A stretch of 64,000 bases of DNA from an uncultured virus (IMG/VR IMGVR_UViG_3300046385_000116) (taxonomy: Duplodnaviria; Heunggongvirae; Uroviricota; Caudoviricetes): IMG/VR virus record IMGVR_UViG_3300046385_000116. One strand, given 5' to 3'. A program made the position numbers and the translations under genes. Positions 14,501-35,920 of this stretch are shown here, piece by piece. Under the pieces are notes generated by a model that worked only from the letters and a program-made list of their open reading frames with translations, was not told the origin of the DNA and searched no databases. Each line of letters starts with the position of its first letter. Position 1 is the stretch's first letter.

Positions 14501-15182
14501 TACAGGACCAGTTCTATCGACTTATTCCAATGTTTCAACAAATACTTCTGTTCTTGTGGGACAAGCTATTTTAGCAAACACTTCAGCAGGACAATTCACG
14601 TTAACATTCCCAGCATCACCATCTACAGGAGATTCAATTCGTGTTGTTGATGGATGGGATTTTTCAATTAACAATTTATTAATTTCTCCAAATGGAAATT
14701 CATTTGAAGGTATATCGGACACTTTAGCTTTAAATGCTAAAGGTATAGAAGTTATATTTGCTTGGTCTGGTGCAACATGGAAAGTTTATCCGACACTAGG
14801 TAAAAAAGGAGCAACCGGTCCTACACCATCAATAGTTAAAACTATGAATATCATTATCGATGGTAATGGTTCTGTGGTATCAACAGGTTCAAAAGCAAAC
14901 GTGTTTTTTGATTATGCAGCCACAATAAATTCATGGGCAATTTTAAACGATGTTACTAGTTCAACAACAGTCAACGTATCAAAGGCAACCTACACAAACT
15001 ATCCAACATTTACTGCTTCAGGTGGTACAAGTCCTGGTGTAACTTCTGGTGTTAAAAATTCAGGCACAATCGATTGGTCTGGATTCACAACAGTAAGTGC
15101 CAATGATGTATTGCGATTCACTGTAAGTACTAATTCAGCCGCAACGAAAATAGCATTATCTTTGAAATTAACAACTTTATAA
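11538..15182 (+). CDS. collagen-like (Gly-X-Y) fibre protein with globular inserts
   Basis: Three long G-X-Y tracts ([15 protein letters not shown]) separated by globular domains, including two 'ANT..G.F..T.PASP..GD' fibre domains. TTG start after CATAAATA. Confidence 0.85.
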
Positions 15183-15183
15183 T

Positions 15184-15483
15184 ATGAAAATACCTACGAG
15201 AGACCGTACAGTTTTTATTATAGAACAGGAACCAGGTAGAGTTGTATATGAAACAATACTTGGTGAAAAATGGGAAATATTAGGCACATGCAATCAATGT
15301 GGATTATGTGAAGTAGGAAGTTCGGATCCACAGATATTTTGGGTTGAAGGAAAACAACCTGGAGAACCTGGAGCCTGTTATAATATTTTGGGAGAAGAAC
15401 GATTAGATAATCCTTGCAGACCTGAAATCAAACAAAATTTTCCTGAATGTACATTGAGTGGAAATTATTTGAATGGCAACTAG
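15184..15483 (+). CDS. small Cys-rich putative metal/Fe-S-binding protein
   Basis: CNQCGLC ... C ... PCRP ... FPEC. Confidence 0.6.
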   Translation: MKIPTRDRTVFIIEQEPGRVVYETILGEKWEILGTCNQCGLCEVGSSDPQIFWVEGKQPGEPGACYNILGEERLDNPCRPEIKQNFPECTLSGNYLNGN

Positions 15484-17107: not shown

Positions 17108-17134
17108 ATATAGAATAACAAATCTTTTTAAAAA

Positions 17135-17332
17135 ATGACAATATTCATAACCGATTTAGCTACTGCCGATTTAGTTGGCGCAACTGGAGCCACAGGTCCT
17201 GCTGGAGCTACAGGTCCAGCAGGTATAACAGGAGCATCAGGTGCTACCGGTGTTTTACCTTATAATTTTACAGTAGGACCAACACAACCATCAACACCAA
17301 GTCTTTATGATATTTGGGTAGATACTAATTAA
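17135..17332 (+). CDS. mini collagen-like protein
   Basis: Short G-X-Y tract and C-terminal 'P..P...DIWVDT' fibre motif; follows CATAAATA. Confidence 0.6.
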   Translation: MTIFITDLATADLVGATGATGPAGATGPAGITGASGATGVLPYNFTVGPTQPSTPSLYDIWVDTN

Positions 17333-17337
17333 ATAAT

Positions 17338-17523
17338 ATGGCAAAATATAAATTTTTATCATCAGATGTTACCGGAGTGTTAAGTCATATCGTGGCTTAT
17401 GATGCTACAATATTATCTATGACACCAGACGAAAATTATTATATTGTGGAGGTTGATATACAATTTCCCGAAGAAGAATATAATCATTTGGTCGAATCTT
17501 ATGATTTTGTGGAGATAGTCTAA
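17338..17523 (+). CDS. hypothetical protein (acidic)
   Basis: ORF packed between fibre-module genes. Confidence 0.5.
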   Translation: MAKYKFLSSDVTGVLSHIVAYDATILSMTPDENYYIVEVDIQFPEEEYNHLVESYDFVEIV

Positions 17524-18377
17524 TGGGTTTATTAGTTCCTGCCGGTCAAGACTTTCAATGGTATTATTCTAATACATTAACAACACGACCAAACGTAACA
17601 GCATTTGGTACATCAATAACTCCGGCAGTTGCACCAACTTTTGGTGCATGGACGCAAGTAGCTACAGCAGCTAATATTGCAAATGATGTTTATGGAGTAT
17701 TAATTTGTATAAACAACGCTGCCACATCTGCGGCAACAAGAAACATACTAATGGACCTTGGTGTTGATAATGCAGGTGGTACTACATACCTCACTAAAAT
17801 TCCATATCTACAAGGCGGAAGTGCTGCACCATATGGCACATCATTAGGTGGTATTTGGTATTATTTTCCACTGTATATCAATCGTGGTAGTTCTGTGGCT
17901 GTAAGAGCAATGGGTACTACAACAGCGGCATTCAACTGTTCGGTTTATTTTTATGGACAACCTAGGAGACCTGATGCCGTTCGAGCCGGTTCATATGTTG
18001 ATGCTTATGGATTCAATACCACAGGTGCATTAGGTACAGCAGTTACTCCAGGAACTACCGCAGAAGGAACCTGGACACAATTAGGAACCACAACATCAAG
18101 TTACTGGTGGTGGCAATGTGGATTTAATGTAAACGATACAACAATGACAGCTGCCACTATCCATGCGGATTTATCCGCAGGAACCGCAGCACAGAAAAAG
18201 ATTTTATTTGAAAATCAACTTTGGCAAACAACTGCTGCAGAACAAACAAGTTGTGCCATTAATACGGCCAATGCATATAACAATACCGCATCGGGTGATA
18301 TTATCTATGGTCGTCTACAACATTCCAGTACTGCCGATACGGGTAATGCAATGATAGCATATGGTTTAGGAGGATAA
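17523..18377 (+). CDS. putative virion fibre/receptor-binding protein (two related beta domains)
   Basis: Internal duplication (GT.(I/V)TP......G.WTQ twice); Thr/Ala/Gly-rich; located in the fibre module. Confidence 0.55.
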   Translation: MGLLVPAGQDFQWYYSNTLTTRPNVTAFGTSITPAVAPTFGAWTQVATAANIANDVYGVLICINNAATSAATRNILMDLGVDNAGGTTYLTKIPYLQGGSAAPYGTSLGGIWYYFPLYINRGSSVAVRAMGTTTAAFNCSVYFYGQPRRPDAVRAGSYVDAYGFNTTGALGTAVTPGTTAEGTWTQLGTTTSSYWWWQCGFNVNDTTMTAATIHADLSAGTAAQKKILFENQLWQTTAAEQTSCAINTANAYNNTASGDIIYGRLQHSSTADTGNAMIAYGLGG

Positions 18378-18378
18378 A

Positions 18379-18723
18379 ATGGCAATTACAGAAGCTTATA
18401 CAGGCACAGCAACAATATCAACTACAGAAATTAGTTTAGTTTCTGGTACTACTACACTTCAATCTATTACAACACCGGCAGTCATACAAGTCTTTATTGA
18501 TACTGCAAACATGGTTGCAGGTGATGAGTATTTAATTCAAATTAAAGATAAAGTTATTAGTGGTGGAACACAAAGAACAATATATTCAGCAACATTAGAT
18601 GGAGTTCAAAGTTCTCCGTTTGTTACACCAACATTAATATTATATCATGGTTGGGACATTACTATGGACTTAATAACAGGTACTGGTAGAAGTATTTCAT
18701 GGTCTATTCGTAAGGTTGGATAA
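18379..18723 (+). CDS. putative virion structural protein
   Basis: Thr-rich beta-type ORF with AGGAGG SD. Confidence 0.55.
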   Translation: MAITEAYTGTATISTTEISLVSGTTTLQSITTPAVIQVFIDTANMVAGDEYLIQIKDKVISGGTQRTIYSATLDGVQSSPFVTPTLILYHGWDITMDLITGTGRSISWSIRKVG

Positions 18724-18726
18724 TAA

Positions 18727-18927
18727 ATGGCTTGGTTATATCAACCGTTACTACCAGCAGCTACCGATTTACTATCAACACCCTCCACTGATGGTTTTGT
18801 TAAGTACTATGATGGTAGTCAATGGTTGTTAAAACCTTTTAAAATTTATGATGGTTCAACTTGGGTAACAAAACCCGTAAAATTTTGGGATGGTTCACAG
18901 TGGGTTCCTACTACATCTCCTCCTTAA
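18727..18927 (+). CDS. small fibre-associated protein with (Y/W)DGSxW repeats
   Basis: KYYDGSQW, KIYDGSTW, KFWDGSQW. Confidence 0.6.
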   Translation: MAWLYQPLLPAATDLLSTPSTDGFVKYYDGSQWLLKPFKIYDGSTWVTKPVKFWDGSQWVPTTSPP

Positions 18928-18962
18928 TCAGTCATAAATAAGAATATAATAATTAAAAAAAT

Positions 18963-19499
18963 ATGTCTATCAATTTAAGTTCTCTTGCTACTTCCGCATT
19001 AACAGGTCCATTTGGTGCTACCGGTTCAACTGGTCCACAAGGTGCTACTGGTGTTCAAGGTGCATCTGGCTCAACAGGCTTAACTGGTGCTACTGGTGTT
19101 CAAGGTCCAACAGGTGGTGCTTCAGGTCCACAAGGTGCAACCGGTTTATCTGGCTCAACAGGTCCAGGTGGTGCTGATTCAGTAACATCAATATCTATTT
19201 CCAGTGGTACTCTTGCAGTTGATATCTCTCAAGGTCCTGTTTACAACCTTACATTAAATCAAAATATTACATCAATTACATTTTCAAATTTAAACGCTTC
19301 CAATAAAGTCAGTACGGCAATATTAATAGTAACATACAATGGTACTGCATATAGTATCGTATGGCCAGCCAACGTGGAATGGCCAAACGGTGTGGCACCA
19401 ACTCTTACAACAACAAACGGCAAAAAGGACATATTCTCGTTGTTTACATCCGATTACGGAACAACTTGGAATGCAATCATCTCCGGTCAAAACCTTTAA
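18963..19499 (+). CDS. short collagen-like protein with C-terminal fibre domain
   Basis: G-X-Y tract followed by '[16 protein letters not shown]....KKDIFS...D.GTTW'. Confidence 0.7.
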
Positions 19500-19509
19500 G
19501 GTGTCATAG

Positions 19510-22500
19510 ATGTTATTGAATTATATTCTAACGCCTTCAGCAAATGTAGTAAACAATTCAAGTAATACATCACTATATGTTTGGGGTGATAATTCTGGTG
19601 GTCAATTAGGCACCGGTGATATTTCAACTTTGTCATATACTCAGCCTGTTGCGGTTACCAACTTTCTTCAAGGCAATTCATTTTCACAAATCAAAGCAGG
19701 TAGTTCTCATGCGTTAGCAATCGATACCAATAATCGTTTGTGGGCATGGGGTGATAATACTTTTGGCCAAATTGGTGATGGTACAAGTGGTTCAGCAGCC
19801 GATGCTTGGAAACCAGAACTGATTGAGATTGGTGGTAATTGGTACAGAGAAGTTTCCGCTGGTGGTTCACATACGGCTGCCATAAAAAATTCAGACAGTT
19901 CTCTATGGATATGGGGACTGAATAGTTCTGGTCAATTGGGTGATGGTACAACAATTAATAAATCTAGTCCGGTACAAGTTACGGCACAAGGTGATATTAC
20001 CGACACTAGAGGTTCATGGAAATATATTTCGTCCATTTCTTCTCATACAGCAGCTATTCGTTCTTCTGATTCTTCATTATGGGCATGGGGACTTAATGCT
20101 AATGGCCAATTAGGTGATGGAACCACCATAGATAAATTTTCTCCAGTTAAGATAGGAAATAGTAGCTGGAGTATGGTAAATGGTGGTGAATTAAATACAA
20201 CTGCTATAGACATTACTGGTGCTTTATATGCATGGGGACTTAATACTTCTGGCCAACTAGGTGATGGTACCACCATAGACAAATCCTCTCCAATACAAAT
20301 AGGAAGTTCTAGCTGGAGTATGGTGAGTGGTGGTGGTTCTCATACAACTGCTATAGACATTACTGGTGCTTTATATGCATGGGGATTTAATAGTTCTGGT
20401 CAATTAGGTGATGGTACCACCACCAACAAATCTTCTCCAGTAAAAATAGGAAGTTCCAGCTGGAGTATGGTAAGTGGTGGTGGTTTACATACAATTGCTA
20501 TAGACATTACTGGTGCTTTATATGCATGGGGAAGTAATCTTTATGGTCAACTAGGTGATGGTACCACCATAGACAAATCTTCTCCAATTAAAATAGGAAG
20601 TTCCAGCTGGAGTATGATAAGTGGTGGTGGTTCTTTAAATACAACTGCTATAGACATTACTGGTGCTTTATATGCATGGGGAAGAAATAATTTTGGTCAA
20701 TTAGGTGATAATACCACCACAAACAAATCTTCTCCAATTAAAATAGGAAGTAATAGCTGGAATATGGTGAATACTGGTAATCACTCAGCAGCTATTGATT
20801 CCACTGGTGCTTTATATACATGGGGAGCTGACACTTCTGGACAATTAGGTGATGGTACCACCACCAATAAATCTTCTCCAGTAAAAATAGGAAGTAGTAG
20901 CTGGAGTATGGTAAGTGTAGGTGTGGTATATTCATTAGCTATAGATGTTACTGGTGCTTTATATGCATGGGGAAGTAATGGTAATGGTCGATTAGGTAAC
21001 AATGACCCACAATATTATGTGTATAATAAATCTTCTCCTGTTTTGGTAGGCCAATATCCATATCAAAGAACAATCACAATCACTTCATGGAAATCTGTAA
21101 GTTGTGGAGTATTACACACAACTGCTATTGCAAATACAGGTATATTGTATACATGGGGAAGTAATGTTTCTGGTCAATTAGGTGATGGAACCACCATTGA
21201 TAAATCTTCTCCAGTGAAGATAGGAAGTAGTAGCTGGGGTATGATAAGTTCTGGTTGGGACAATTCAATGTCTATTGATATTACTGGTGCTTTGTATGCA
21301 TGGGGAGGTAATGGTTCTGGATCATTGGGGGATGGCACCACAGTATTCAAATCCTCTCCAGTAAAAATAGGAAATTCTAGCTGGAGTATGGTGAGTGCTG
21401 GATGGAATAACTTCACAACGGCTATAGATATTACTGGTGCTTTGTATGCATGGGGAAGTAACACTTATGGTACATTAGGAGATGGCACCAAAGTAAATAA
21501 ATCCAGTCCAATAAAAATAGGAAGTTCCAGCTGGAGTATGGTGAGTGCAGGTTATATAGCCGCTTCAGCTATTGATATTACTGGCGCTTTATATACATGG
21601 GGATATAATCTATATGGATCCTTAGGTGATGGTACCACCATTAATAAATCTTCTCCAGTAAAAATAGGAAGTTCTAGTTGGAATATAATAAGTTCTGGTA
21701 AGAATGGTCAAACGGCAGCTATTGACATTACAAGTTCTCTTTATACATGGGGATTAAATTTTAATGGTGAAATGGGAGATGGAACTCTGTTATCCAAATC
21801 ATCTCCTGTAAAAATAGGAACATCGAGTTGGAGTTTAACGAGCGCAGGATTTTATCACACCACGGCAATCAATTCTATTGGTTCAATTTATACATGGGGT
21901 AGAAATACTTCTGGACAATTAGGTGACGGCACCAAAGTAAATAAATCCTCTCCAGTCCAAATCGGACTTTCACAAACATTCTTCAAAGGTATTGGTACTG
22001 CCAATAATACATCACTTGCAATCACAACAGATAATAAACTGTATTCTTGGGGTGATAACTCTCAAGGTCAAGTGGGTGATGGTACAACGGTCAATCGTTC
22101 AAGACCAACACAAATTTACGGAAATTATTTAAGTAATTCTGGTGATTCTTGGAACATGATGATGAGTTCTGGAACACACACAGTAGCTATTCGTTCATCA
22201 GATAATTCATTGTGGATGTGGGGACATAATGGTAATGGTGCATTGGGTGATGGTACCACCACATCCAAATCTTATCCAGTAAAAATAGGATTAAATAGTT
22301 GGAATGTAGTGAATGTGGGTGTCTTCCATACACTGGCGATAAATTCTACTGGTGCTTTATACACATGGGGAAGTTCGGCATCTGGTGCTTTAGGTGATGG
22401 CGCCAACACCAATAAATCTTCTCCAGTATTAATCACAGTTGCAAAACCATTAACATACGATTCATGGAAAATAATATCTTCTGGAAATTCACACACAGTA

Positions 22501-25500
22501 GCCATTCGTGCATCAGATAGTTCATTGTGGGCATGGGGATTGAATACTACTGGTCAAGTAGGAGATGGTACTATTGGTAGTAAATCTTCTCCAGTAAAAA
22601 TAGGAAGTTCTAGCTGGAGTATGGTATTAGCTACTTCCAATTATTCAATAGCTATTGATATCACTGGTGCTTTGTATACATGGGGAAATAATAATAATGG
22701 TCAATTAGGTGATGGTACCACCATCAACAAATCTTCTCCAGTAAAAATTGGAAGTTCCAGTTGGAGTGTATTGGCTAGTTGTGGCGTGAGTGGACATTCA
22801 GCAGCTATTGATATTACTGGTGCTCTATATGCATGGGGAAGTAATAATGCTGGTCAGTTAGGAGATGGTACTACCGTATCTAAATCTTCTCCAGTAAAAA
22901 TAGGAAGTAGTAGCTGGAGTATGGTAGACGCAGGAGTCACACACACAATAGCTATTGATATAACTGGTGCTCTATATGCATGGGGAAGTAATAATATCGG
23001 TGCATTAGGTGATGGTACCACCATTAATAAATCTTCTCCAATACAAATAGGAAGTAGTAGCTGGACTATGGCAAGAGCAGGAAATCCCGAATCAGCAGCT
23101 ATTGATACCACTGGTGCTTTATATGTATGGGGATGGAATACTGCTGGTCAATTAGGAGATGGAACCACCATTAATAAATCTTCTCCAGTAAAAATAGGAA
23201 GTAGTAGTTGGAGTATGGTGAGTTCTGGAAGTACACATACAGTAGCTATAGATGTTACTGGTGCTTTGTATACATGGGGTGGTAATAGTAATGGTGCATT
23301 AGGTGATGGTACTACCGCATCTAAATCTTCTCCTGTAAAAATAGGAAGTTCCAGCTGGAGTATGGTGAGTACCACTTGGACCAATACATCAGCTATTGGT
23401 GTTGATGGCAATCTTTATATATGGGGAAATAATAGTTTAGGTCAAATAGGTGATGGTACTGCCATAGACAAATCTTCTCCAGTTCAAGTAGCAACAACAT
23501 ATGAAAGAATAAATTCATGGTCAGCAGTTGCTGGAGGTTCTTCTTATTCAGCAGCTATCGATTATTCAGGTTCTCTATGGACATGGGGATTGAATAGTTC
23601 AGGACAATTAGGTGATGGTACAACTGCAAACAGAAGTTATCCTGTAAATATTCCAGGTATATGGAGTTCAGTTGATATTGACCCGATTGGTTCAACTACA
23701 GCAGCCATAGATTCAACCGGTGCTTTATACACATGGGGTTCTAATGCTTCCGGTCAATTAGGTGATGTTACACAAGTAAACAAATCTTCTCCAGTAAAAA
23801 TAGGAAGTAGTAGTTGGAGTATAGCAACAGTAAGTAATGTAAACTCTGCAGCTATAGATATCACTGGTGCTTTATACACATGGGGTGGTAATAGTAATGG
23901 TGCATTAGGTGATGGTACCACTATCAACAAATCTTCTCCAGTACAAATAGGAACAAGTAGCTGGAGTAAAGTTGGTGTGGGTCAACACTGTATAGCAGCT
24001 ATAGATTCAACCGGTGCTTTATATACATGGGGTCAAAATAGTTCTGGTCAATTAGGTGATGGTACCACCATAGCCAAATCATCTCCAGTAAAAATAGGAA
24101 GTAGTAGTTGGAGTATGGTTTATGCAAATTTTGCTATAACACACATTAAAGATATAAATGGAATTTTTTATGCAATGGGTGCTTCAAATAGTGATGGACA
24201 ATTAGGTGATGGAACCACCACAAGCAAATCTTCTCCAGTTGTTGTTGGATACGCTTATGCACAAGAAACATCATTCTTACCTGTAGCTTCTTCTGGATAC
24301 GGAAATCATTTCACTGTTCTTGGAGGAAATGCAGCAAGTTATAATCTATATGCATGGGGTGTCAATACAACAGGACAATTAGGTGCAGCATTAGGTGTAA
24401 ACCAATATTCACCAACATCGGCTGTGGATTTGAGAAATAATAATTTTGCTTCAAAAAATCCAGATTCATGGAAACAAGTTTCTAATGGCCAAAATTATAC
24501 ATTAGCAATACGTTCTTCAGATTCATCATTATGGACATGGGGACTTAATACTAGTGGCCAATTAGGTGATGGTACCACAGTATCCAAATCTTCTCCGGTA
24601 AAAATAGGAAGTTCTAGCTGGAGTATGGTAAGTTCTGGCGGATTATACACAGTAGCTATTGATATTACTGGTGCTTTGTATGCATGGGGACAAAATAATA
24701 ATGGTCAACTAGGTGATGGTACCAACACCAGCAAATCTTCTCCTGTAAAAATAGGAAGTTCTAGCTGGAGTATGGTAAGTGCTGGTAGCATACACACATT
24801 GGCAATAGATTCCACTGGTGCTTTGTATGTGTGGGGTAGTAATTCGACAGGTCAATTAGGTGATGGTACCACAGTATCTAAATCTTCTCCAGTAAAAATA
24901 GGAAGTAGTAGTTGGAGTGTGGTGAGTGCTGGTGGTACGCATACAACAGCCATTGACACTAATGGAAGTTTGTATACATGGGGTTATGGTGGTTCTGGTG
25001 CTTTAGGTGATACTACCAGCACCAATAAATCTTCTCCAGTAAAAATAGGAAGTTCCAGCTGGAGTATCGTGGGTGCTAGTTCTCTTCATACCGCAGCTAT
25101 TGATACCACTGGTGCTCTATATGCATGGGGATTCAATAATAGTGGACAGTTAGGTGACGGCACTACTGTTTTTAAATTATCTCCAGTTAAGATAGGAAGT
25201 TCCAGCTGGAGTATGGTGAATAATGGTGAAGATTATACAGCAGCTATTGATGTTACTGGTGCTTTGTATGCATGGGGTACTAGTTTTAATGGTACATTAG
25301 GTGATGGTACCACCACAGCTAAATCTTCTCCAGTTAAAATAGGAAATAGTAGTTGGAGTATGGTGAATGCCGGAAGTTCTCATTCATCAGCTATTGATGT
25401 TACTGGTGCTTTGTATACATGGGGGAATAATGGTTTTGGTGCTTTAGGTGATAATACCACTGTATCTAAATCCAAACCAGTAACAATCATTACAACCAAT

Positions 25501-25839
25501 GCCAATCCATCCAATATAACACAAATAAATACTGGATTATCACACACTTCAATTCTTGATGGTTATTCAATATGGACAATTGGTGGCAATGCTTCAGGAC
25601 AATTAGGTGATGGTACTACTACCAATAAAAATTATTTAACTCGTCAATTTACAGGAATGTCACCAACAGTAACAACAGGTTATACTCATATGGCAGCTAT
25701 TGTAGATAAAACACTTTATACATGGGGTTTAAACACATCACATCAATTGGGTGATGGAACACAAGTAAGCAAATCTTCTCCATTGGTAGTTGGATTACCA
25801 ACACTAGACGAAAACCCAAATCAAGATACTTGGATATAA
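19510..25839 (+). CDS. giant RCC1/BLIP-II repeat beta-propeller protein (41 blades)
   Basis: About 50-aa repeats of consensus GALYAWGxNxxGQLGDGTTxxKSSPVKIGSSSWSMVSxGxxHTxAID; 41 counted by hand. Confidence 0.92.
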   Translation: MLLNYILTPSANVVNNSSNTSLYVWGDNSGGQLGTGDISTLSYTQPVAVTNFLQGNSFSQIKAGSSHALAIDTNNRLWAWGDNTFGQIGDGTSGSAADAWKPELIEIGGNWYREVSAGGSHTAAIKNSDSSLWIWGLNSSGQLGDGTTINKSSPVQVTAQGDITDTRGSWKYISSISSHTAAIRSSDSSLWAWGLNANGQLGDGTTIDKFSPVKIGNSSWSMVNGGELNTTAIDITGALYAWGLNTSGQLGDGTTIDKSSPIQIGSSSWSMVSGGGSHTTAIDITGALYAWGFNSSGQLGDGTTTNKSSPVKIGSSSWSMVSGGGLHTIAIDITGALYAWGSNLYGQLGDGTTIDKSSPIKIGSSSWSMISGGGSLNTTAIDITGALYAWGRNNFGQLGDNTTTNKSSPIKIGSNSWNMVNTGNHSAAIDSTGALYTWGADTSGQLGDGTTTNKSSPVKIGSSSWSMVSVGVVYSLAIDVTGALYAWGSNGNGRLGNNDPQYYVYNKSSPVLVGQYPYQRTITITSWKSVSCGVLHTTAIANTGILYTWGSNVSGQLGDGTTIDKSSPVKIGSSSWGMISSGWDNSMSIDITGALYAWGGNGSGSLGDGTTVFKSSPVKIGNSSWSMVSAGWNNFTTAIDITGALYAWGSNTYGTLGDGTKVNKSSPIKIGSSSWSMVSAGYIAASAIDITGALYTWGYNLYGSLGDGTTINKSSPVKIGSSSWNIISSGKNGQTAAIDITSSLYTWGLNFNGEMGDGTLLSKSSPVKIGTSSWSLTSAGFYHTTAINSIGSIYTWGRNTSGQLGDGTKVNKSSPVQIGLSQTFFKGIGTANNTSLAITTDNKLYSWGDNSQGQVGDGTTVNRSRPTQIYGNYLSNSGDSWNMMMSSGTHTVAIRSSDNSLWMWGHNGNGALGDGTTTSKSYPVKIGLNSWNVVNVGVFHTLAINSTGALYTWGSSASGALGDGANTNKSSPVLITVAKPLTYDSWKIISSGNSHTVAIRASDSSLWAWGLNTTGQVGDGTIGSKSSPVKIGSSSWSMVLATSNYSIAIDITGALYTWGNNNNGQLGDGTTINKSSPVKIGSSSWSVLASCGVSGHSAAIDITGALYAWGSNNAGQLGDGTTVSKSSPVKIGSSSWSMVDAGVTHTIAIDITGALYAWGSNNIGALGDGTTINKSSPIQIGSSSWTMARAGNPESAAIDTTGALYVWGWNTAGQLGDGTTINKSSPVKIGSSSWSMVSSGSTHTVAIDVTGALYTWGGNSNGALGDGTTASKSSPVKIGSSSWSMVSTTWTNTSAIGVDGNLYIWGNNSLGQIGDGTAIDKSSPVQVATTYERINSWSAVAGGSSYSAAIDYSGSLWTWGLNSSGQLGDGTTANRSYPVNIPGIWSSVDIDPIGSTTAAIDSTGALYTWGSNASGQLGDVTQVNKSSPVKIGSSSWSIATVSNVNSAAIDITGALYTWGGNSNGALGDGTTINKSSPVQIGTSSWSKVGVGQHCIAAIDSTGALYTWGQNSSGQLGDGTTIAKSSPVKIGSSSWSMVYANFAITHIKDINGIFYAMGASNSDGQLGDGTTTSKSSPVVVGYAYAQETSFLPVASSGYGNHFTVLGGNAASYNLYAWGVNTTGQLGAALGVNQYSPTSAVDLRNNNFASKNPDSWKQVSNGQNYTLAIRSSDSSLWTWGLNTSGQLGDGTTVSKSSPVKIGSSSWSMVSSGGLYTVAIDITGALYAWGQNNNGQLGDGTNTSKSSPVKIGSSSWSMVSAGSIHTLAIDSTGALYVWGSNSTGQLGDGTTVSKSSPVKIGSSSWSVVSAGGTHTTAIDTNGSLYTWGYGGSGALGDTTSTNKSSPVKIGSSSWSIVGASSLHTAAIDTTGALYAWGFNNSGQLGDGTTVFKLSPVKIGSSSWSMVNNGEDYTAAIDVTGALYAWGTSFNGTLGDGTTTAKSSPVKIGNSSWSMVNAGSSHSSAIDVTGALYTWGNNGFGALGDNTTVSKSKPVTIITTNANPSNITQINTGLSHTSILDGYSIWTIGGNASGQLGDGTTTNKNYLTRQFTGMSPTVTTGYTHMAAIVDKTLYTWGLNTSHQLGDGTQVSKSSPLVVGLPTLDENPNQDTWI
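24732..24837 (+). repeat. 106-nt exact direct repeat (second copy at 28062-28167)
   Basis: Identical stretch shared by the two RCC1 ORFs, compared by eye. Confidence 0.8.
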
Positions 25840-28800
25840 ATGCCATTAAATAGTCAACAACTTATCATAAGAAAATCTGATAATGCTCTGTATGCATGGG
25901 GTGTTGGTTTTGGTGGTCAATTAGGTGACAATACTTCTGTTAATAAATCTTCTCCAGTACAAATAGGAACAAGTAGTTGGAGTTCTGTTTCAGCAGGAGC
26001 AACAATGGGTTCAGCCATTGATGTTAATGGTATTCTATACGCTTGGGGTAGTAATAACGGAAATTTGGGTGATAATACTGTTGCCAGTAAATCTTCTCCA
26101 GTATTAATCGGAGCTGCTAAACCTTTAACATATGATTCGTGGAAAGAAATTTCATCTGGTGGTTCACACACTGTAGCAATCCGCTCTTCCGATTCTTCAT
26201 TATGGACATGGGGTCAAAATAGTGTTGGCCAATTAGGTGATGGTACCACCATAGCCAAATCATCTCCAGTAAAAATAGGAAGTAGTAGTTGGAGTATGGT
26301 AAGTGCTGGAGGATTTCATACATTAGTTATCGATATCACTGGTGCTTTATATACATGGGGTAGAGGTAATGAAGGTCAATTAGGTGATGGTACCACCATT
26401 AACAAATCTTCTCCAGTACAAATAGGAAGTTCCAGCTGGAGTATGGTGAATGCCGGAAGTTCTCATTCAGCAGCTATAGATACTACTGGTTCTTTGTATA
26501 CATGGGGTTATAATACTAACGGTCAATTAGGTGATGGTACCACCACCAATAGGTCATCTCCAGTACAAATAGGAAGTAGTAGCTGGAGTATGGTGAGTGG
26601 CGGTGTTGTTCACACAGTAGCCATCGATGTTACTGGTGCTTTATATACGTGGGGACTTGGTAGTAATGGTCGATTGGGTGATGGTACCACCATTAACAAA
26701 TCTTCTCCAGTACAAATAGGAAGTTTCAGCTGGAGTATGGTGAGTGCTAGTAGTGGTCATTCGACAGCTATAGATATCACTGGTGCTTTATATGCATGGG
26801 GAAATAATTCATTTGGTCAATTAGGTGATGGATCCACCGTAGGCAAATCTAGTCCAGTAAAAATAGGAAGTTCCAGCTGGAGTATGGTGACTGTTGGTGA
26901 TAATGATTACACATCCGCTATTGATATTACTGGTGCTTTGTATGCATGGGGATTTAATGGTAGTGGCCAATTAGGTGATGGTACCACCACATCCAAATCT
27001 TCTCCAGTGAAAATTGGAAGTTCCAGCTGGAGTATGGTAAGTGATGGATTCACATATACAATGGCTATTGATATCACAGGTGCTTTATATGCATGGGGAC
27101 TTAATTCGAATAGCCAATTAGGTGATGGTACAGCCATCAATAAATCCTCTCCTGTACAAGTTGCTACGACATACGAAACATTAAATTCATGGACAGCTGT
27201 TTCTGCTGGAGTAAACCAAATTGCAGAGATTGCTTATAATAATAATTTATGGACACAAGGACAAAATACTGTTGGCCAATTAGGTGATGGCACAACTGCA
27301 AATAGAAGTTATCCAGTTCAAGTGTATTATAATGTTCCTTCCGTGTATGATTCATGGAAGTCCATATCTCTTGGTGGTGACCACGTTGTCGCTATTCGGT
27401 CTTCTGATTCTTCTTTGTGGGCATGGGGAGATAACCTTCGAGGACAATTGGGTGATGGAACTCAAACAGATAAATTATGGCCAGTAAAAATAGGAAGTAG
27501 TAGCTGGAGTATGGTGAGTGCTGGTTATTCACATACAGCAGCTATTGATATTACTGGTGCTTTATATACATGGGGAATTAATACTGGTGGTCGATTAGGT
27601 GATGGTACCACGACACAAAGATTATCTCCGGTAAAAATAGGAAATAGTAGCTGGAGTATGGTGAGTGGTGGTCATGGTGGTTACTCATCAGCTATTGATA
27701 TTACTGGTGCTTTATATATGTGGGGTAATAATAGTACTGGTGAATTAGGTGATGGTACTACCATAGATAAATCTTCTCCAGTAAAAATAGGAAGTAATAG
27801 CTGGAGTAAGGTAAATAGTGGTGCTAATCATACATTAGCTATAGATTCCACAGGAGCTCTATATGCTTGGGGTGGCAATGTAGCTGGTCAATTAGGTGAT
27901 AGAACAACTATCAATAAATCTTCTCCAATACAAATAGGAACAAGTAGCTGGAGTATGGTTGAATGTGGATATTCTAATAGTTTTGCAATAGATTCTACTG
28001 GAGCTCTTTATGCATGGGGACAAAATAATATTGGTCAATTAGGTGATAATACCGGCTTAACCAAATCTTCTCCTGTAAAAATAGGAAGTTCTAGCTGGAG
28101 TATGGTAAGTGCTGGTAGCATACACACATTGGCAATAGATTCCACTGGTGCTTTGTATGTGTGGGGTTACAATGCTCAAGGACAATTAGGTGATGGAACG
28201 ACCATAGAAAAATTTTCTCCAGTAAAAATTGGTAGTTCTAGTTGGAGTGTTGTAGGTGCTGGTGCTTATGGTTCTGGAGGTATAACTTCTGATGGTGTTT
28301 TATATACATGGGGTCTTAATAACTCTGGCCAATTAGGACAATATAATTTAATAGACAGAAGTTCACCAGTTCAAGTTGCAACCAGTTTTGCACAAATAAA
28401 TTCATGGTCACAGGTTTCTGTAGGAAATTCATTTGTGGCCGCATTGAATACACAAAAACTTTTATACACATGGGGTCTTAGTAATTCTGGCCAATTAGGT
28501 GATGGTCTAAATGCAAATAGATTTTTTCCTATGTTAATTTCAGAATCAAGTTGGAACTTTGTGACTGTTGGTGGCACACATGGAGCTGCAATTGATACGA
28601 CAGGAAATTTATATACATGGGGTCAAAATGGCAATGGCCAATTAGGTGATAGTACTGCTACAAATCGTCCATCACCAGTATTAATTACTGCGGTTGACCC
28701 AATTCAGTATGATTCATGGAAACAAATTTCGGTAGGTTATTCTTTTACATCAGCCATTCGTGCTTCAGATTCTTCATTGTGTGCATGGGGAGTTAATATT

Positions 28801-30321
28801 GTAGGTCAATTAGGTGATGGCACCACCGTATCCAAATCTTCTCCAGTAAAAATAGGAAATAGTAGCTGGAGTATGGTGAGTGCTGGTCCTTCACATTCAG
28901 CAGCTATAGATTCCACTGGTGCTTTATATGCATGGGGATTTAATGCTTCTGGCCAATTAGGTGATGGAACCACCATAAACAAATCTTCTCCAGTAAAAAT
29001 AGGAAGTTCTAGCTGGAGTATAGTAGAAGTTAGTAATTCTAATTCAATGGCTATTGATATTACTGGTGCTTTGTATACATGGGGACTTAATTCGTCTGGT
29101 CAATTAGGTGATGGTACCACAGTATCCAAATCTTCTCCAGTTAAAATAGGAAGTAGTAGCTGGAGTAAAGTTGGTAGAGGATTATCACATTCAGCAGCTA
29201 TCGATATCACTGGCGCTTTGTATGCATGGGGTGGTAATTCTGTTGGCAATTTAGGTGATGGTACCACCACAGATAAATCTTCTCCAGTAAAAATAGGAAA
29301 TTCTAGCTGGAGTATGGTAAGTGCTGGATTCACATATACAACAGCCATTGATTCTACTGGTGCTTTATATACATGGGGTGGTAATATTGGTGCACAATTA
29401 GGTGATGGTACCACCGTAAACAAATCTTCTCCAGTTAAAATTGGAAGTTCTAGCTGGAGTATAGTGAGTCCTGGCATTTCTTATACATTAGCCATTGATT
29501 CTACTGGCACTTTATATGCATGGGGAAATAATTCATTTGGTCAATTAGGTGATGGTACCACCACCAGCAAATCTTCTCCAGTACAAATAGGAAGTAGTAA
29601 ATTTGTAAAAGCATACGCAGGAGGAACACATCAAGCTTCTTTGACTATTAATGGAGATTTATATACATGGGGTAATAATAATGCTGGTCAATTAGGTCAT
29701 GGTGAACTTGTCAGTAAATCTTCTCCTGTACAAGTTGCCACCACATACAATATTATTTCTTCATGGACTATGGTAGGTTGTGGTAATGATTTTACTGCTA
29801 TGCTTTCCTATGATGGAAATATTTACACAACAGGTTATAATCTTTATGGTATGTTGGGTGATGGAAATACAGCAAGTAGAGGTTATCCAAATAAAATTTC
29901 ACCAATTAAAACACCGGTTGGATATGGAACTTCTCCTGTCTTTGTGAGAATTGATGTTGGTGCATCTCATGTGGCTGCCATTACAGGATGGGGTACTTTG
30001 TACACATGGGGATACAATACTTCTGGCCAACTTGGTTTAAATTCAACCGTTTCATATATTCCTGTTCCAACAAATATTAATACATTGTCAGCATCACCAA
30101 CATTAGTTGCGGCTGGAATATCACACACAGTTGTTTCAGGACAATATGCAAATACAAACTATCTGTATGCAGTAGGTGGTAATACTCTTGGACAATTAGG
30201 TGATGGTACTACACTATCTACAACATTTTCAGGTAATCAATCGTTTGAACAAGTTCCTAAAAACACATATAAATATATCAATGATTTAATTGCTGGTGGA
30301 AACTTCACCATTAAGAAATAG
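25840..30321 (+). CDS. giant RCC1/BLIP-II repeat beta-propeller protein (29 blades), in frame with the preceding ORF
   Basis: Same repeat consensus; 29 counted by hand. ATG directly follows the upstream TAA in the same frame. Confidence 0.92.
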   Translation: MPLNSQQLIIRKSDNALYAWGVGFGGQLGDNTSVNKSSPVQIGTSSWSSVSAGATMGSAIDVNGILYAWGSNNGNLGDNTVASKSSPVLIGAAKPLTYDSWKEISSGGSHTVAIRSSDSSLWTWGQNSVGQLGDGTTIAKSSPVKIGSSSWSMVSAGGFHTLVIDITGALYTWGRGNEGQLGDGTTINKSSPVQIGSSSWSMVNAGSSHSAAIDTTGSLYTWGYNTNGQLGDGTTTNRSSPVQIGSSSWSMVSGGVVHTVAIDVTGALYTWGLGSNGRLGDGTTINKSSPVQIGSFSWSMVSASSGHSTAIDITGALYAWGNNSFGQLGDGSTVGKSSPVKIGSSSWSMVTVGDNDYTSAIDITGALYAWGFNGSGQLGDGTTTSKSSPVKIGSSSWSMVSDGFTYTMAIDITGALYAWGLNSNSQLGDGTAINKSSPVQVATTYETLNSWTAVSAGVNQIAEIAYNNNLWTQGQNTVGQLGDGTTANRSYPVQVYYNVPSVYDSWKSISLGGDHVVAIRSSDSSLWAWGDNLRGQLGDGTQTDKLWPVKIGSSSWSMVSAGYSHTAAIDITGALYTWGINTGGRLGDGTTTQRLSPVKIGNSSWSMVSGGHGGYSSAIDITGALYMWGNNSTGELGDGTTIDKSSPVKIGSNSWSKVNSGANHTLAIDSTGALYAWGGNVAGQLGDRTTINKSSPIQIGTSSWSMVECGYSNSFAIDSTGALYAWGQNNIGQLGDNTGLTKSSPVKIGSSSWSMVSAGSIHTLAIDSTGALYVWGYNAQGQLGDGTTIEKFSPVKIGSSSWSVVGAGAYGSGGITSDGVLYTWGLNNSGQLGQYNLIDRSSPVQVATSFAQINSWSQVSVGNSFVAALNTQKLLYTWGLSNSGQLGDGLNANRFFPMLISESSWNFVTVGGTHGAAIDTTGNLYTWGQNGNGQLGDSTATNRPSPVLITAVDPIQYDSWKQISVGYSFTSAIRASDSSLCAWGVNIVGQLGDGTTVSKSSPVKIGNSSWSMVSAGPSHSAAIDSTGALYAWGFNASGQLGDGTTINKSSPVKIGSSSWSIVEVSNSNSMAIDITGALYTWGLNSSGQLGDGTTVSKSSPVKIGSSSWSKVGRGLSHSAAIDITGALYAWGGNSVGNLGDGTTTDKSSPVKIGNSSWSMVSAGFTYTTAIDSTGALYTWGGNIGAQLGDGTTVNKSSPVKIGSSSWSIVSPGISYTLAIDSTGTLYAWGNNSFGQLGDGTTTSKSSPVQIGSSKFVKAYAGGTHQASLTINGDLYTWGNNNAGQLGHGELVSKSSPVQVATTYNIISSWTMVGCGNDFTAMLSYDGNIYTTGYNLYGMLGDGNTASRGYPNKISPIKTPVGYGTSPVFVRIDVGASHVAAITGWGTLYTWGYNTSGQLGLNSTVSYIPVPTNINTLSASPTLVAAGISHTVVSGQYANTNYLYAVGGNTLGQLGDGTTLSTTFSGNQSFEQVPKNTYKYINDLIAGGNFTIKK

Positions 30322-30329
30322 GAGAATAT

Positions 30330-30557
30330 ATGAATATTGAAATTAGAGATGCTATGGATTTTGCTGGTTACTGTCATTTATACCATCAACAGTATATTAT
30401 TGACCAACAGATTGACCATGCCGAATTTGTGAATCGTTTAGGCTGGATTGATTTTGAAAATAATTATATTAAATTTGCCGAAGAATTGGCCAAAGAAGAC
30501 CACATGAATCAGTTTGTACAAACAGCTAAACAACTTATGGAGAGCCCTCCAGCGTAA
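30330..30557 (+). CDS. hypothetical protein
   Basis: ORF with AGGAG SD. Confidence 0.55.
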   Translation: MNIEIRDAMDFAGYCHLYHQQYIIDQQIDHAEFVNRLGWIDFENNYIKFAEELAKEDHMNQFVQTAKQLMESPPA

Positions 30558-30599
30558 CACATATATATTTCTATAGGATGATTTTATTATTAGGAGATT

Positions 30600-32363
30600 T
30601 TGATGCACGACATTGACTTGGAATTAAAACTGATGCTTGAAGGCCGTATGAAAGAGGCTCGAGCAATTTCAGACAAACTTGAAAAATTGGGACCAGAAGG
30701 AATACCAGATCCCGAAGGTAATATTGGTAATCCTGAAATGTGGACCAGACATTGTTTTAATCGTGGTTGGTTCATGATACAAGATGGTGATTATCAAAAA
30801 GGTTGCCGTCTTTTAGAATCAGGCCGTTTCATTAATGTCTATGGTTCTCCTCCTTTAAAAACTTCCGCCCCAATTTTTAATCCCGAAGAACATGATATTA
30901 AGGGTAAATCAATTATTATTTCCCTTGAAGGTGGTTTTGGTGATGAGATTATTCACGCCCGATTCTGTCAATCTTATAAGGACATGGGTGCGGCCAAAGT
31001 TTATCTAGCTGCCAGTCCAGAAGTAGTATCCATTTTTGAACGAATTCCTGGTTGCGATGGAGTAATCCTACGCAATCAAATGCACACAGTTCAACATGAT
31101 TTTTGGGTACCAGGATTCTCAGCCGGTTGGGTTGCAGGTCACACATTCAAAAACTTTCCAAATAAACCTTACCTATTCGCCAAACCTGATTCAGTTAATG
31201 TTTGGAAAGAAGTTATCAAAGGTGATAAAGTCAAAGTTGGTATTCGTTGGGCAGGTAATCCAAAATTTGAACACCAACAATTCCGTAGATTCCCACCTAA
31301 GTTTTTAACAGAACTTTCTAAGTATGAAAATGTCCAGTTGTATTCATTACAGCGTGACCAAAATATTATTACTTTACCAGAAGATGTTATTGATTTACAA
31401 CATCTATTAATTTCATGGGAAGATACATTAGCTGCCATTGAGAATTTAGATATTGTTATCACATCATGTACGAGTGTGGCTCATGCGGCTGCAGCTCTAG
31501 GTAAAGAAACATGGGTGATTGTACCAATTCTACCATATCATACATGGACATTTGGTGCACCTCATTCTAAGAAATCTCCATATTATGAATGTGTCAACCT
31601 TTATCGTCAAGATGAAGCCAAATCATGGAACTCAACATTTCAAAGATTATACAAAGACTTCGAGAAGAAGTTTAATCTAGAGAAAGTAGAACATCCAAAC
31701 CACGATAAAGAAGGTAAAAAACTTAATCTTGGCTGTGGATTCATGAAACTTGAAGGCTACTTGAATGTGGATGGTTCTGATATTTGTGAACCAGATATGA
31801 AAGTGGACTTGAATCAATTACCATGGCCATTTGAAGATGATGAGTTCCAACATATTGTTGCCAAAGATGTATTAGAACATTTAGGTAATGATAAAGTTTC
31901 TCTTGTAGATATCATCAAAGAAATGCATCGTGTATCAGAGAATGGTGCCGTATGGGAAGTTGCCGTACCACATCATCGTTGTGACCATGCCTATGATGAC
32001 CCAACACACCGCAATGTTATCACACCAAGAACATTCCAGTTGTTCAATCAAAAAGAATTGATGGATGGTTATGCAATTGGTCGTTCAGAAACTCCATTGG
32101 CATTTGAAACTGGTGTTGACTTAGATGTATGCGAAACTAAGTTTGAATATGTTGGTCAGATTAAACAAGCTATCATGAATAAACAAATGACAGAAGAACA
32201 ATTGACGATGTTGTTGAACACACAAAACAATATTGCCGAATCTACTGTGATGTTAATTCAAACACATAAACCAGGTAGATATTCAATTAAAGAATTGCAA
32301 GACACAATTAAAACTACCAATGAAAGAAAAAATGAACTGATTCGTAAACAATTAGAAAAGTAA
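30600..32363 (+). CDS. GT9-like (heptosyltransferase-type GT-B) glycosyltransferase fused to a SAM methyltransferase
   Basis: EGGFGDEI..ARF, VGIRWAGNP, LDIVITSCTSVAHAAAALG; C-terminal LNLGCG...DVLEHL...DDPTH. Start is 30600 (TTG) or 30603 (ATG). Confidence 0.82.
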   Translation: MMHDIDLELKLMLEGRMKEARAISDKLEKLGPEGIPDPEGNIGNPEMWTRHCFNRGWFMIQDGDYQKGCRLLESGRFINVYGSPPLKTSAPIFNPEEHDIKGKSIIISLEGGFGDEIIHARFCQSYKDMGAAKVYLAASPEVVSIFERIPGCDGVILRNQMHTVQHDFWVPGFSAGWVAGHTFKNFPNKPYLFAKPDSVNVWKEVIKGDKVKVGIRWAGNPKFEHQQFRRFPPKFLTELSKYENVQLYSLQRDQNIITLPEDVIDLQHLLISWEDTLAAIENLDIVITSCTSVAHAAAALGKETWVIVPILPYHTWTFGAPHSKKSPYYECVNLYRQDEAKSWNSTFQRLYKDFEKKFNLEKVEHPNHDKEGKKLNLGCGFMKLEGYLNVDGSDICEPDMKVDLNQLPWPFEDDEFQHIVAKDVLEHLGNDKVSLVDIIKEMHRVSENGAVWEVAVPHHRCDHAYDDPTHRNVITPRTFQLFNQKELMDGYAIGRSETPLAFETGVDLDVCETKFEYVGQIKQAIMNKQMTEEQLTMLLNTQNNIAESTVMLIQTHKPGRYSIKELQDTIKTTNERKNELIRKQLEK

Positions 32364-32366
32364 ATT

Positions 32367-33788
32367 ATGGAATTTTTGATAGCGTTACAAACGCATAATT
32401 TGTCCAACAATCAGGATGATTACCAACCTTATGAAGGTTTTGAGTTTAAGAGATACGGGTGCAATGATAAGACGGAAGTAATCAAGCGTTGCACTCGGTC
32501 AATGATTAAGGCCATCAATTACGCACAAGATAAATTACCTCATTGGAAATTTAAACTGAATTTATTTGATGACCGCTCAACCGATTTTGGTTTACAGGTC
32601 ATCAAAGACAACTTGGCATTGGCCAACTTTCCCACCAAACTATATCATAATGAAACACCTGGTTTATTGCCATCATTAAGATATTGTTATGAGAATATGC
32701 GTGATGAGGGTAAAGATATTGTCATGCAGGCTCAAGATGATTATCTATATGATGAACAGTGTTTTTATCAGGTGATATTATTTTGGGAAAGATATCAGCC
32801 AAAGTTTCCTAAACCACTATCAATTTTACCTTATAATGACCCATACAGATATTGGGACCACAATGTAGTTCCAGTTCGCATAGTTCAAGGTCCAGACAGA
32901 CATTGGCGACAAACCTATCAGGTGCCTTGTACATTTATGACAACTCACCAGGTGGTTGTGGATGAGTGGGATTTATTTGATAAGATTTGTAATGGGCATC
33001 CTCATGACCCTAAGCTGGAAGATAATTCGGTTAATCGTTTATGGCAAGAAAGAGATTATGTGGTCATGGCACCGTTACCCTCTTTGTCTTTACATTTCCA
33101 AACTGAAAATGAAAAAGACCCATACATTGATTGGCAATCTTGGTGGGACAAACACGGTGATGATACTGTCAATAAAGAAAGAGAAGAACACAAAGACTTG
33201 TTCGATACAGATAAAAAAATTGTATTGAATGTGGGTTGTGGTAAAACAAAACTAGAATATCAGTCTGGTTATTTTAAAGATTGGAAAGAAGTTCGTATTG
33301 ATGCCTTTGAAAATGATTCAGCTCATCTGATTACTTCTATTGTAGATTTAAATAAAGTTCCTAATGAATCAGTAGATGCTATTTGGGCATCTCATGTTGT
33401 TGAACACAATTACTGGCATGATTTACCAAAAGTATTTAACAATATGCTTCGTGTAATGAAAGAAGATGGATTTGGTGTCATTCGTGTACCAGATTTAGGT
33501 TCTATTGCTGAAAAAATAGAAGAAGGTCTTTTAGATACTGTCTATGAGAGTTCAGCTGGTCCCGTATCTGTTATAGATATGATATATGGCCATAGAGGTT
33601 TTGTTGAATCTTGGGGTGATGGTATGTGTCACAAGACAGGATTTACCAAGAAATCTATGGAACAATTATTGAGCGCCTTTCAAATAAAAGGCTTTGTTAA
33701 ATCTGATGGTGGTGAAGTTGTTGCCATTATCTTTAAAGGTGAACCACCGATGGATGCGATGGTGGATCCAGAATTGATTATATCATGA
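32367..33788 (+). CDS. GT-A glycosyltransferase-like domain fused to a SAM methyltransferase
   Basis: FDDRS ... AQDDYLY; C-terminal VLNVGCG ... ASHVVEH ... IRVPDL ... HKTGFT. Confidence 0.78.
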   Translation: MEFLIALQTHNLSNNQDDYQPYEGFEFKRYGCNDKTEVIKRCTRSMIKAINYAQDKLPHWKFKLNLFDDRSTDFGLQVIKDNLALANFPTKLYHNETPGLLPSLRYCYENMRDEGKDIVMQAQDDYLYDEQCFYQVILFWERYQPKFPKPLSILPYNDPYRYWDHNVVPVRIVQGPDRHWRQTYQVPCTFMTTHQVVVDEWDLFDKICNGHPHDPKLEDNSVNRLWQERDYVVMAPLPSLSLHFQTENEKDPYIDWQSWWDKHGDDTVNKEREEHKDLFDTDKKIVLNVGCGKTKLEYQSGYFKDWKEVRIDAFENDSAHLITSIVDLNKVPNESVDAIWASHVVEHNYWHDLPKVFNNMLRVMKEDGFGVIRVPDLGSIAEKIEEGLLDTVYESSAGPVSVIDMIYGHRGFVESWGDGMCHKTGFTKKSMEQLLSAFQIKGFVKSDGGEVVAIIFKGEPPMDAMVDPELIIS

Positions 33789-35907: not shown

Positions 35908-35912
35908 GAAAG

Positions 35913-35920
35913 CATAAATA
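35913..35920 (+). promoter_or_regulatory. late promoter variant upstream of gp13
   Basis: CATAAATA in the intergenic gap. Confidence 0.7.

Follow-up and report, generated by a model that had tools for sequence, protein, structure and literature searches.

Two neighbouring open reading frames (ORFs), ORF1 and ORF2, lie at positions 19,510 to 30,321 of a 64,000-nucleotide stretch of DNA from an uncultured virus of the Caudoviricetes (IMG/VR record IMGVR_UViG_3300046385_000116; the whole stretch is called the window here). They consist nearly entirely of RCC1 repeats, the blades of propeller proteins, and the order of their 70 blades follows a bracket rule that counts in sevens. What kind of protein would be written in brackets? 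The reading that we favour, with slightly better than even confidence, is a nested tree of ten seven-bladed propellers. For its stricter form, recursive nesting by a copy-and-insert rule that makes the blade order a true bracket (context-free) grammar, with a root ring shared by two interlocked chains, the chances seem to us evenly balanced.

In the proposed history, a T4-like freshwater cyanophage would carry a single giant RCC1-repeat gene, which grew as complete seven-blade cassettes were inserted into it again and again. A cassette would bring its own entry blade, with a long linker at either end, and would land in the D-to-A loop of an existing propeller, and each seven-blade bracket would fold as its own RCC1-like propeller. 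The root propeller, A, would comprise blades 1, 2, 17, 32, 40, 41 and 70 and would bear B (holding C), D (holding E), F, and G (holding H, I and J). Its ring would be closed as in RCC1, here by the first two strands of ORF1 and the last two of ORF2. A nonsense-plus-restart at 25837-25842 would cut strand A of G1, and the ORF1 and ORF2 chains would have to fold together, each lending strands to the other's propeller.

Seventy blades and their bracket order

Regular-expression anchors, with two blades added by eye (31, FYAMG, and 41, LYTWGLNTSH), give 41 blades in ORF1 and 29 in ORF2, and a blade hidden Markov model (HMM) trained on 40 regular blades independently finds the same 41 and 29. In Pfam, the RCC1 family PF00415 matches 39 and 28 stretches of the two proteins (1149 and 877 bits; cut-off 21.7), and PF25390 scores 1622 and 1062 bits (cut-off 150). 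Most blade junctions measure 48-51 amino acids (aa) from anchor to anchor; the long ones all sit in the linker that joins strand D to strand A of the following blade. An entry signature, [AGI]I[RK].{4,6}L[WFYC].WG, matches exactly nine blades (3, 4, 18, 20, 33, 42, 44, 52 and 61). Six runs of exactly seven tightly spaced blades (4-10, 20-26, 33-39, 44-50, 52-58 and 61-67) each open with a signature blade. Both outer ends are half-blades: ORF1 begins at strand C, and ORF2 stops after strands A and B. The order of the parts is as follows.

19510..25839, + strand: ORF1, 2109 aa, blades 1-41, ends in TAA
19510..19833, + strand: root A, strands C and D of A1, plus A2 (ORF1 aa 1-108); conserved N-terminus and orthology
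19834..20004, + strand: B1, entry blade 3 (ORF1 aa 109-165); signature and stack parse
20005..21075, + strand: C1-C7, blades 4-10, tight seven-blade run; spacing and parse
21076..21966, + strand: B2-B7, blades 11-16, exit junction 16/17 of 51 aa; spacing and parse
21967..22128, + strand: A3, blade 17, motif GTANNTS at aa 829; orthology
22129..22449, + strand: D1-D2, blades 18-19; parse
22450..23520, + strand: E1-E7, blades 20-26, tight run with a VQVATTY exit linker at its end; spacing and parse
23521..24249, + strand: D3-D7, blades 27-31, exit junction 31/32 of 60 aa; parse
24250..24453, + strand: A4, blade 32, motif TSFLPVASSGYG; orthology
24454..25500, + strand: F1-F7, blades 33-39, tight run; parse, and UVR8 alignment in AlphaFold2 model 2
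25501..25836, + strand: A5 and A6 (blades 40-41) and the strand-A stub of G1; orthology supported for A5, not for A6
25831..25845, + strand: split point TGG ATA TAA ATG CCA, within strand A of blade 42 (G1)
25840..30321, + strand: ORF2, 1493 aa, blades 42-70
25840..26112, + strand: remainder of G1, plus G2 (blades 42-43); junction alignment and parse
26113..27180, + strand: H1-H7, blades 44-50; spacing and parse
27181..27339, + strand: G3, lone blade 51 between two seven-blade runs; parse
27340..28380, + strand: I1-I7, blades 52-58; spacing and parse
28381..28704, + strand: G4-G5, blades 59-60; parse
28705..29751, + strand: J1-J7, blades 61-67; spacing and parse
29752..30075, + strand: G6-G7, blades 68-69; parse
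30076..30318, + strand: A7 (blade 70) and the terminal strands A and B; conserved C-terminus

The parse behind this list leaves no free choices: a bracket is opened at each signature blade, blades are counted, and the bracket is closed at seven. From the nine entries alone it yields A1 A2 [B1 [C1-7] B2-7] A3 [D1 D2 [E1-7] D3-7] A4 [F1-7] A5 A6 [G1 G2 [H1-7] G3 [I1-7] G4 G5 [J1-7] G6 G7] A7, with the stack empty at the end; when nine entries are placed at random, only 8.7% of the sets close. The linkers, which are not used in the parse, can then be compared with the exits that it predicts, after blades 10, 16, 26, 31, 39, 50, 58, 67 and 69. Long junctions (in the window, at least 53 aa) are found at eight of the nine predicted exits vs two of the 51 other non-entry junctions (Fisher p = 1.5e-7), and not one of 50,000 random entry sets both closed and gave at least eight long exits. 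Alignment with hmmalign tells the same: 14 of the 15 junctions with at least two extra D-to-A linker residues are predicted entries or exits. The bracket grammar is thus real and far above chance. An earlier reading of the window, made from the letters alone (the sequence-only reading), had counted the 41 + 29 blades by hand, listed nine entry-signature blades, taken long linkers as marks of exits, placed half-blades at the start of ORF1 and at the end of ORF2, and proposed a bracket string with seven blades per bracket. All of this is borne out, and the parse reproduces the string down to the part held least certain (G6 = 68, G7 = 69 and A7 = 70).

Blade likeness follows the brackets as well. 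The root set A is the most diverged, with a mean of 14.4 of 37 identities to the consensus, and G comes next (16.4), vs 27-29 of 37 in the tight runs C, E, F, H, I and J. Blade identity within brackets is 0.484 for the nested partition vs 0.456 for a sequential one, and the nested value is reached by 0.15% of 2000 random closing parses. The first blades of the tight units (C1, E1, F1, H1, I1 and J1) are mutual best matches at 0.69-0.78, which fits copying of whole cassettes.

Relatives, root blades and the split gene

Is the grammar peculiar to the window? RCC1 giants abound: of 7999 candidates scored (821-2613 aa), 7800 match ORF2 at an expectation value (E) of 1e-20 or lower, none of them above 49% identity, and the C-terminal part of ORF2 has matches in 141 more proteins of 2614-5000 aa. 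The ORF1 N-terminus at residue 1 and the ORF2 C-terminus at the very end are carried together by P0075, P0027, P0010, P0013, P0044, P0250 and P0246, and P0022 shares the ORF2 C-terminus. The three used most here are single chains of 1501 aa (P0075), 2846 aa (P0250) and 3650 aa (P0246). A permissive anchor expression proved too noisy to be used on relatives. P0075 has 28 blades, with SWK exactly three times, before blades 4, 12 and 21, and its parse closes as A1-3 [7] A4 [7] A5-6 [7] A7. Its exits measure 62, 61 and 63 aa, that is, three of three are at least 55 aa long vs three of the 21 others (p = 0.0099). P0246 has 70 blades (71 HMM matches, two of them halves of one blade). Parsed from nine entries it closes as A1 A2 [7] A3 [7] A4 [X1-3 [Y1-3 [Z1-7] Y4-7] X4-7] A5 A6 [G1 G2 [H1 H2 [I1-7] H3-7] G3 G4 [J1-7] G5-7] A7, a string that differs from the window's and goes three levels below the root. 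All nine of its exits are long (55-60 aa) vs nine of the 51 others (p = 3.3e-6), and one in 100,000 random sets equals this. The grammar therefore recurs in proteins of different bracket shape. P0013, P0010, P0044 and P0022 come to 42 blades if each gap of ~100-115 aa is counted as one missed blade, and the family, seen in freshwater cyanophage-like contigs, ranges from 28 to 70 blades.

Multiples of seven also dominate among smaller RCC1 proteins: of 117 relatives of 640-1160 aa, 55 have 14 blades, 32 have 13 and six have 21, and most of the 13-blade proteins have one ~100-aa gap that is likely a missed blade. Among the 120 proteins listed there is no complete family member shorter than 1200 aa. 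The only short protein sharing the ORF1 N-terminus is a 218-aa fragment, P0155, and in the viral loci found with the ORF1 N-terminus as query the match begins at residue 16 or later.

The relatives also show where the inserts lie. Blade-to-blade scores were double-centred, the raw scores being dominated by the consensus motif, and by these scores the top partners of the P0075 host blades a1-a5 are A1-A5 of the window. The A3 motif stands at aa 829 in the window vs aa 108-110 in P0075, P0013 and P0010. From A3 to A4 the distance is 758 aa in the window, 421 in P0075, 761 in P0013 and 764 in P0010, or 15, 8, 15 and 15 blades, while P0246 has seven blades between A2 and A3 and seven between A3 and A4. 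The insert thus measures 0, 7 or 14 blades between A2 and A3 and 7 or 14 between A3 and A4. In blade 17, strands A and B correspond to their counterparts in the contiguous a3 of P0075, so the insert sits in the D-to-A loop and consists of whole blades. For the B insert, the same orthology led us to set aside a cassette placed in the B-C hairpin of a blade (a 'velcro' insertion). Comparison of these sequences provides good support for cassette-wise insertion of seven-blade units between conserved root blades.

How did one gene become two? The ORF1 stop, TAA at 25837-25839, is followed immediately and in the same frame by the ORF2 ATG. The junction aligns codon by codon and ungapped to paralogous entry blades (TGG ATA TAA ATG vs TGG AAA CAA ATT), with TAA in the CAA column and Met in place of Ile or Val. 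Metagenome contigs of two other sequencing runs bridge it without differences (649 nt in run X3, 151 nt in run X5); a contig of run X6 ends at 25837, and run X4 does not cover the junction. No RNA dataset is listed as containing this stretch. No close relative spans the junction among viral contigs, and metagenome contigs give only pieces of 34-46% identity, so the split can be compared only with distant single-chain relatives. As these carry both the ORF1 N-terminus and the ORF2 C-terminus, ORF1 and ORF2 are one gene cut by an in-frame TAA-ATG, and the stop is real; at the level of sequence both points are well supported. The split point (25832..25840) reads ATATAAATG and contains TATAAAT, which we take to resemble the T4 late-promoter box TATAAATA. 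A late promoter serving ORF2 from this position was discarded, TATAAAT being too near the ATG. A separate observation concerns a 101-kb viral contig (L001) with two RCC1 giants, 4251..9992 (1913 aa) and 9899..19477 (3192 aa), of ~100 blades together, whose ORFs overlap by 94 bases in different frames; the two could represent one more giant, from a different lineage, that has been split or frameshifted.

Structure models and rival folds

Do the units fold as propellers, and which blades share a ring? Topology was read from the ranges over which solved structures align to the AlphaFold2 models. The modelled seven-blade rings have the RCC1 fold and superpose on UVR8 over ~350 aa (root-mean-square deviation, rmsd, 1.5-2.1; Z 46-49). 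Model 1 covers blades 18-31 and was built on an alignment of five window paralogues and 32 foreign proteins of 662-809 aa. Its predicted local distance difference test score (pLDDT) is 87.0 and its predicted template modelling score (pTM) 0.53, with pLDDT 55-70 around fragment residues 331-380. In this model UBR5 rows align ~270 residues scattered over chain residues 7..873. Model 2 covers blades 18-39 and strands A and B of blade 40, on an alignment of 45 giants of mixed phase (pLDDT 84.7, pTM 0.45); its confidence is 92-97 across F and very low at fragment residues 690-739 and 771-779. In both fold searches the third domain alone drew matches, taking all 50 rows: UVR8 aligns there to 779..1131 (349 aa, Z 40.5, rmsd 3.8), the range of blades 33-39 (F) and not 32-38, and the rows for RCC1 and HERC2 extend over 739..1146, far enough to take in strands C and D of A4 at one end and strands A and B of A5 at the other.

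The root ring was approached as a complex of four chains, ORF1 1-109, 820-873 and 1581-2109 with ORF2 1413-1493 as partner, which amounts to the seven A blades with F retained. The score was 0.43 vs 0.02 for the best of three controls, with three runs agreeing in at least 86% of contacts and a partner pLDDT of at least 74. The mark used is reached by 51 of 78 solved complexes and two of 108 mismatched pairs, and with scores of 0.60 or lower it is reached by only five of the 78 solved complexes and by all four mismatches that passed. This test is unlike the tool's calibration set, and the pieces may pass because they resemble solved RCC1-like propellers; the model lends slight support to a root propeller A completed by the ORF2 C-terminus. 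The terminal strands A and B of ORF2 might, in the same tentative sense, complete A1.

Several observations weigh against the nested tree. In model 1, the only readable model of a two-level unit, the predicted fold is sequential: UVR8 fits onto 4..361 (351 aa, rmsd 1.6, Z 46.8) and onto 360..714 (350 aa, rmsd 2.1, Z 49.2), and the two propellers are blades 18-24 and 25-31. Should the foreign 14-blade rows, which are aligned end to end, be tandem propellers, they may have favoured this mid-point boundary. In model 2 no fold-search row covers D/E, which is thus less canonical there than in model 1 (Z 46-49). The third domain of model 2 suggests an eight-bladed ring of F plus the flanking half-blades of A4 and A5, neither nested nor sequential, because the rmsd is 3.5-4 and many eight-bladed proteins stand among the lower rows. 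We take this ring as a probable fragment artefact, one that still brings the two flanks of F together. The parse has its own exceptions: exit 16/17 is short (51 aa), and junctions 1/2 and 68/69 (59 aa) are long though not predicted. In P0246 the plain signature gives ten matches, and the parse of all ten fails to close; the tenth (blade 69) was dropped for want of the upstream W-K that the other nine have. P0250 has 55 blades, with one entry-to-exit run of six (VQVATTY-type exit, residues about 266-610) that could be a true six-blade unit or a repeat collapsed in assembly. Of the P0075 host blades, a6 does not map to A6, and a7 scores A1 (70) above A7 (61). As for an adhesin or virion appendage, what suggests it is the gene neighbourhood and the names of PHROG families. 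The sequence-only reading, which had inferred that whole propellers were repeatedly inserted into loops of others, and had counted consecutive sequential propellers in a predicted structure as evidence to the contrary, therefore stands in part. Blocks of 7 or 14 blades do lie between orthologous root blades, F (33-39) is respected in model 2, and assembly of A from its scattered blades gains slight support from the four-chain score; for the nested fold itself, the one readable case, the sequential model of blades 18-31, comes out against it.

Could the ten propellers simply follow one another like beads on a string, as consecutive sevens? The grammar would then be a fossil of duplication in blocks of 7n blades, since only multiples of seven keep the array foldable; any such block keeps a sequential array in phase, and the brackets might then tell of past insertions and nothing more. 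Tandem RCC1 proteins are the norm, and the propellers of model 1 (18-24 and 25-31) have canonical geometry. Nine of the 55 14-blade relatives have a clearly long seventh junction (59-370 aa), and many other relatives are spaced uniformly at 50-52 aa, so tight tandem junctions are possible. However, the sequential phase would place all nine boundaries (7/8 to 63/64) on minimal junctions of 49-51 aa and every long linker (~20) within a propeller. Each ring would hold both diverged root blades and young, near-identical ones, and the sequential phase offers no reason for exit linkers at count-to-seven closures in three proteins with different bracket shapes. The models are not wholly on its side either, as model 2 puts the third propeller at blades 33-39 and pLDDT drops to 55-70 at the model 1 boundary. 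We regard a purely sequential array as unlikely.

Quite unlikely, in our judgement, is a mixed arrangement in which the six tight runs (C, E, F, H, I and J) fold as propellers and the 28 scattered blades combine in some way other than as hosts A, B, D and G. Blades 11-17 could form a propeller of their own, with hosts {1, 2, 3, 18, 19, 27, 28}, {29-32, 40, 41, 42} and {43, 51, 59, 60, 68, 69, 70}, a grouping that likewise totals sevens; or the scattered blades could pair across the subunits of an oligomer, as phage fibres commonly are oligomers, or join an inserted ring, as the flanking half-blades join F in model 2. Such groupings disregard the signature on blades 3, 18 and 42, conflict with the orthology of blades 17 and 32 to P0075 a3 (contiguous) and a4, and leave the long junctions 31/32 and 69/70 unpredicted, whereas the stack parse predicts both; P0075, moreover, allows one host set only. 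A decaying or misassembled gene, with the stop marking a pseudogene or the array being an assembly artefact, would make the fine structure meaningless. The split is derived, judging from the single-chain relatives, and short-read assembly can collapse near-identical repeats, of which the six-blade run of P0250 may be a case. Against this stand 10.8 kb in one frame with a single stop and an ATG immediately after it, a junction identical in contigs of two other runs, and the exact 70 blades and six exact seven-blade runs, which speak against collapse; this explanation seems to us very improbable. The nested tree remains the favoured reading because insertion would then keep every native blade-to-blade interface, and because it accounts both for long linkers at the two ends of a cassette and for exits falling where the stack closes. 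None of these three points is accounted for by a sequential fold.

Genomic setting, known propellers and meaning

The window reads as DNA of a T4-like cyanophage, and the sequencing runs that hold the RCC1 locus are labelled freshwater metagenomes. There are 60 ORFs of at least 100 aa, all except seven on the + strand, and no transfer RNA gene was found across the window (1..64000). On the 3' side of the RCC1 genes lie those for a neck protein, sheath stabiliser, large terminase, tail sheath, portal and major head protein, the last with 64.7% identity to its counterpart in Synechococcus phage S-H38. No near-identical DNA for the RCC1 locus or for the terminase-to-portal stretch was found in the phage collection. 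The neighbours that surround the RCC1 genes are:

7696..9276, 9824..11497, 30600..32363, 32367..33788 and 33785..35137: five glycosyltransferase and/or methyltransferase genes, either side of the fibre and RCC1 genes
11538..15182: collagen-repeat tail-fibre protein, 1214 aa, 10 collagen stretches, upstream of ORF1
18963..19499: collagen and fibre-tip protein, 178 aa (phrog_9017, E 6e-19), directly upstream of ORF1

Only 10 bases separate the 178-aa collagen gene from the start of ORF1. One of the five sugar-modification genes is a glycosyltransferase-methyltransferase fusion (phrog_3408, E 2e-200), and this flanking set hints that fibre proteins or host sugars are modified. A 544-aa ORF (15473..17107) has a sub-threshold match to a BNR/Ycf48-type propeller (PF14870, 25.9 bits; cut-off 27) and may be a second kind of propeller in the same cluster. 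The 1473-aa ORF at 3255..7676 has no Pfam or PHROG match worth naming. ORF1 and ORF2 themselves match phrog_20500 (E 8e-32 and 8e-27) and phrog_11922 (5e-08 and 8e-07), families of phage tail or tail-fibre proteins, in matches that span the RCC1 repeats only; their best PHROGs are named 'regulator of chromosome condensation'. Among named phages the closest relative, at 48% identity, is an RCC1 protein of 700 aa from Synechococcus phage BUCT-ZZ01, whose gene adjoins one annotated 'tail fiber protein'. Position in the fibre cluster and PHROG names suggest, as the likeliest role, a virion-borne protein with many binding faces, which in the nested tree would be a many-headed, surface-binding one.

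How does such a protein compare with known propellers? It shares its repeat (PF00415, PF25390) with RCC1, UVR8, the RCC1-like domains (RLDs) of HERC2, and RPGR, and like RCC1 it begins at strand C and ends after strand B. Unlike canonical RCC1-like domains it holds ten propellers' worth of near-identical blades, with its ends ~3600 residues apart on two chains, and a role in nucleotide exchange is not expected. HERC1, HERC2 and bacterial and phage RCC1 proteins of 14 and 21 blades also have several propellers per chain in multiples of seven; in tandem multi-RLD proteins a visible spacer follows the seventh blade, whereas here the seventh junctions are minimal and the long linkers obey the bracket rule. 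A propeller interrupted by an inserted domain is familiar from the I-domain of integrin alpha chains, and the blades of the UBR5 RLD are likewise separated in sequence by an inserted domain. In contrast to both, the insert here would be a propeller of the same family; inserts would themselves hold inserts, down to the second level beneath the root in the window and the third in P0246, and a single host would take up three or four of them. Rings completed from elsewhere are known too, in Sec13 with Nup145C or Sec31, in the late closing strand of Apaf-1 and in the intertwined propellers of DDB1. In those cases one strand or blade is supplied, whereas here the exchange would be reciprocal between two chains and the root ring would be drawn from six stretches.

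The near-identical blades recall the highly repetitive propellers surveyed by Pereira and Lupas 2022 (PMC9218822), who rank RCC1/BLIP-II as the third largest group of these and describe amplification from single blades; the words 'nested', 'inserted' and 'insertion' do not occur in that text. The likeness of first blades across units points instead, in the present genes, to copying of whole cassettes. We found no description of a propeller within a propeller or of such phage proteins in the literature searched, most subscription journals lying outside the search.

What would the nested tree mean for the family? Should the fold prove sequential, the brackets would still record clearly how repeat proteins grow. 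If the favoured reading is true, very large proteins would be built by inserting a domain into itself over several levels, for which no prior description was found, and this phage would offer a natural system that adds binding heads by inserting whole propellers into the loop of another propeller. The split gene would be one whose two products fold only together. The relatives would form a natural series for studies of evolution and design (28, 42 and 70 blades, with P0250 at 55), in which loop insertion is tolerated and counted in sevens. The product itself would be a many-headed, host-binding phage protein, whose number of heads changes by cassette insertion.

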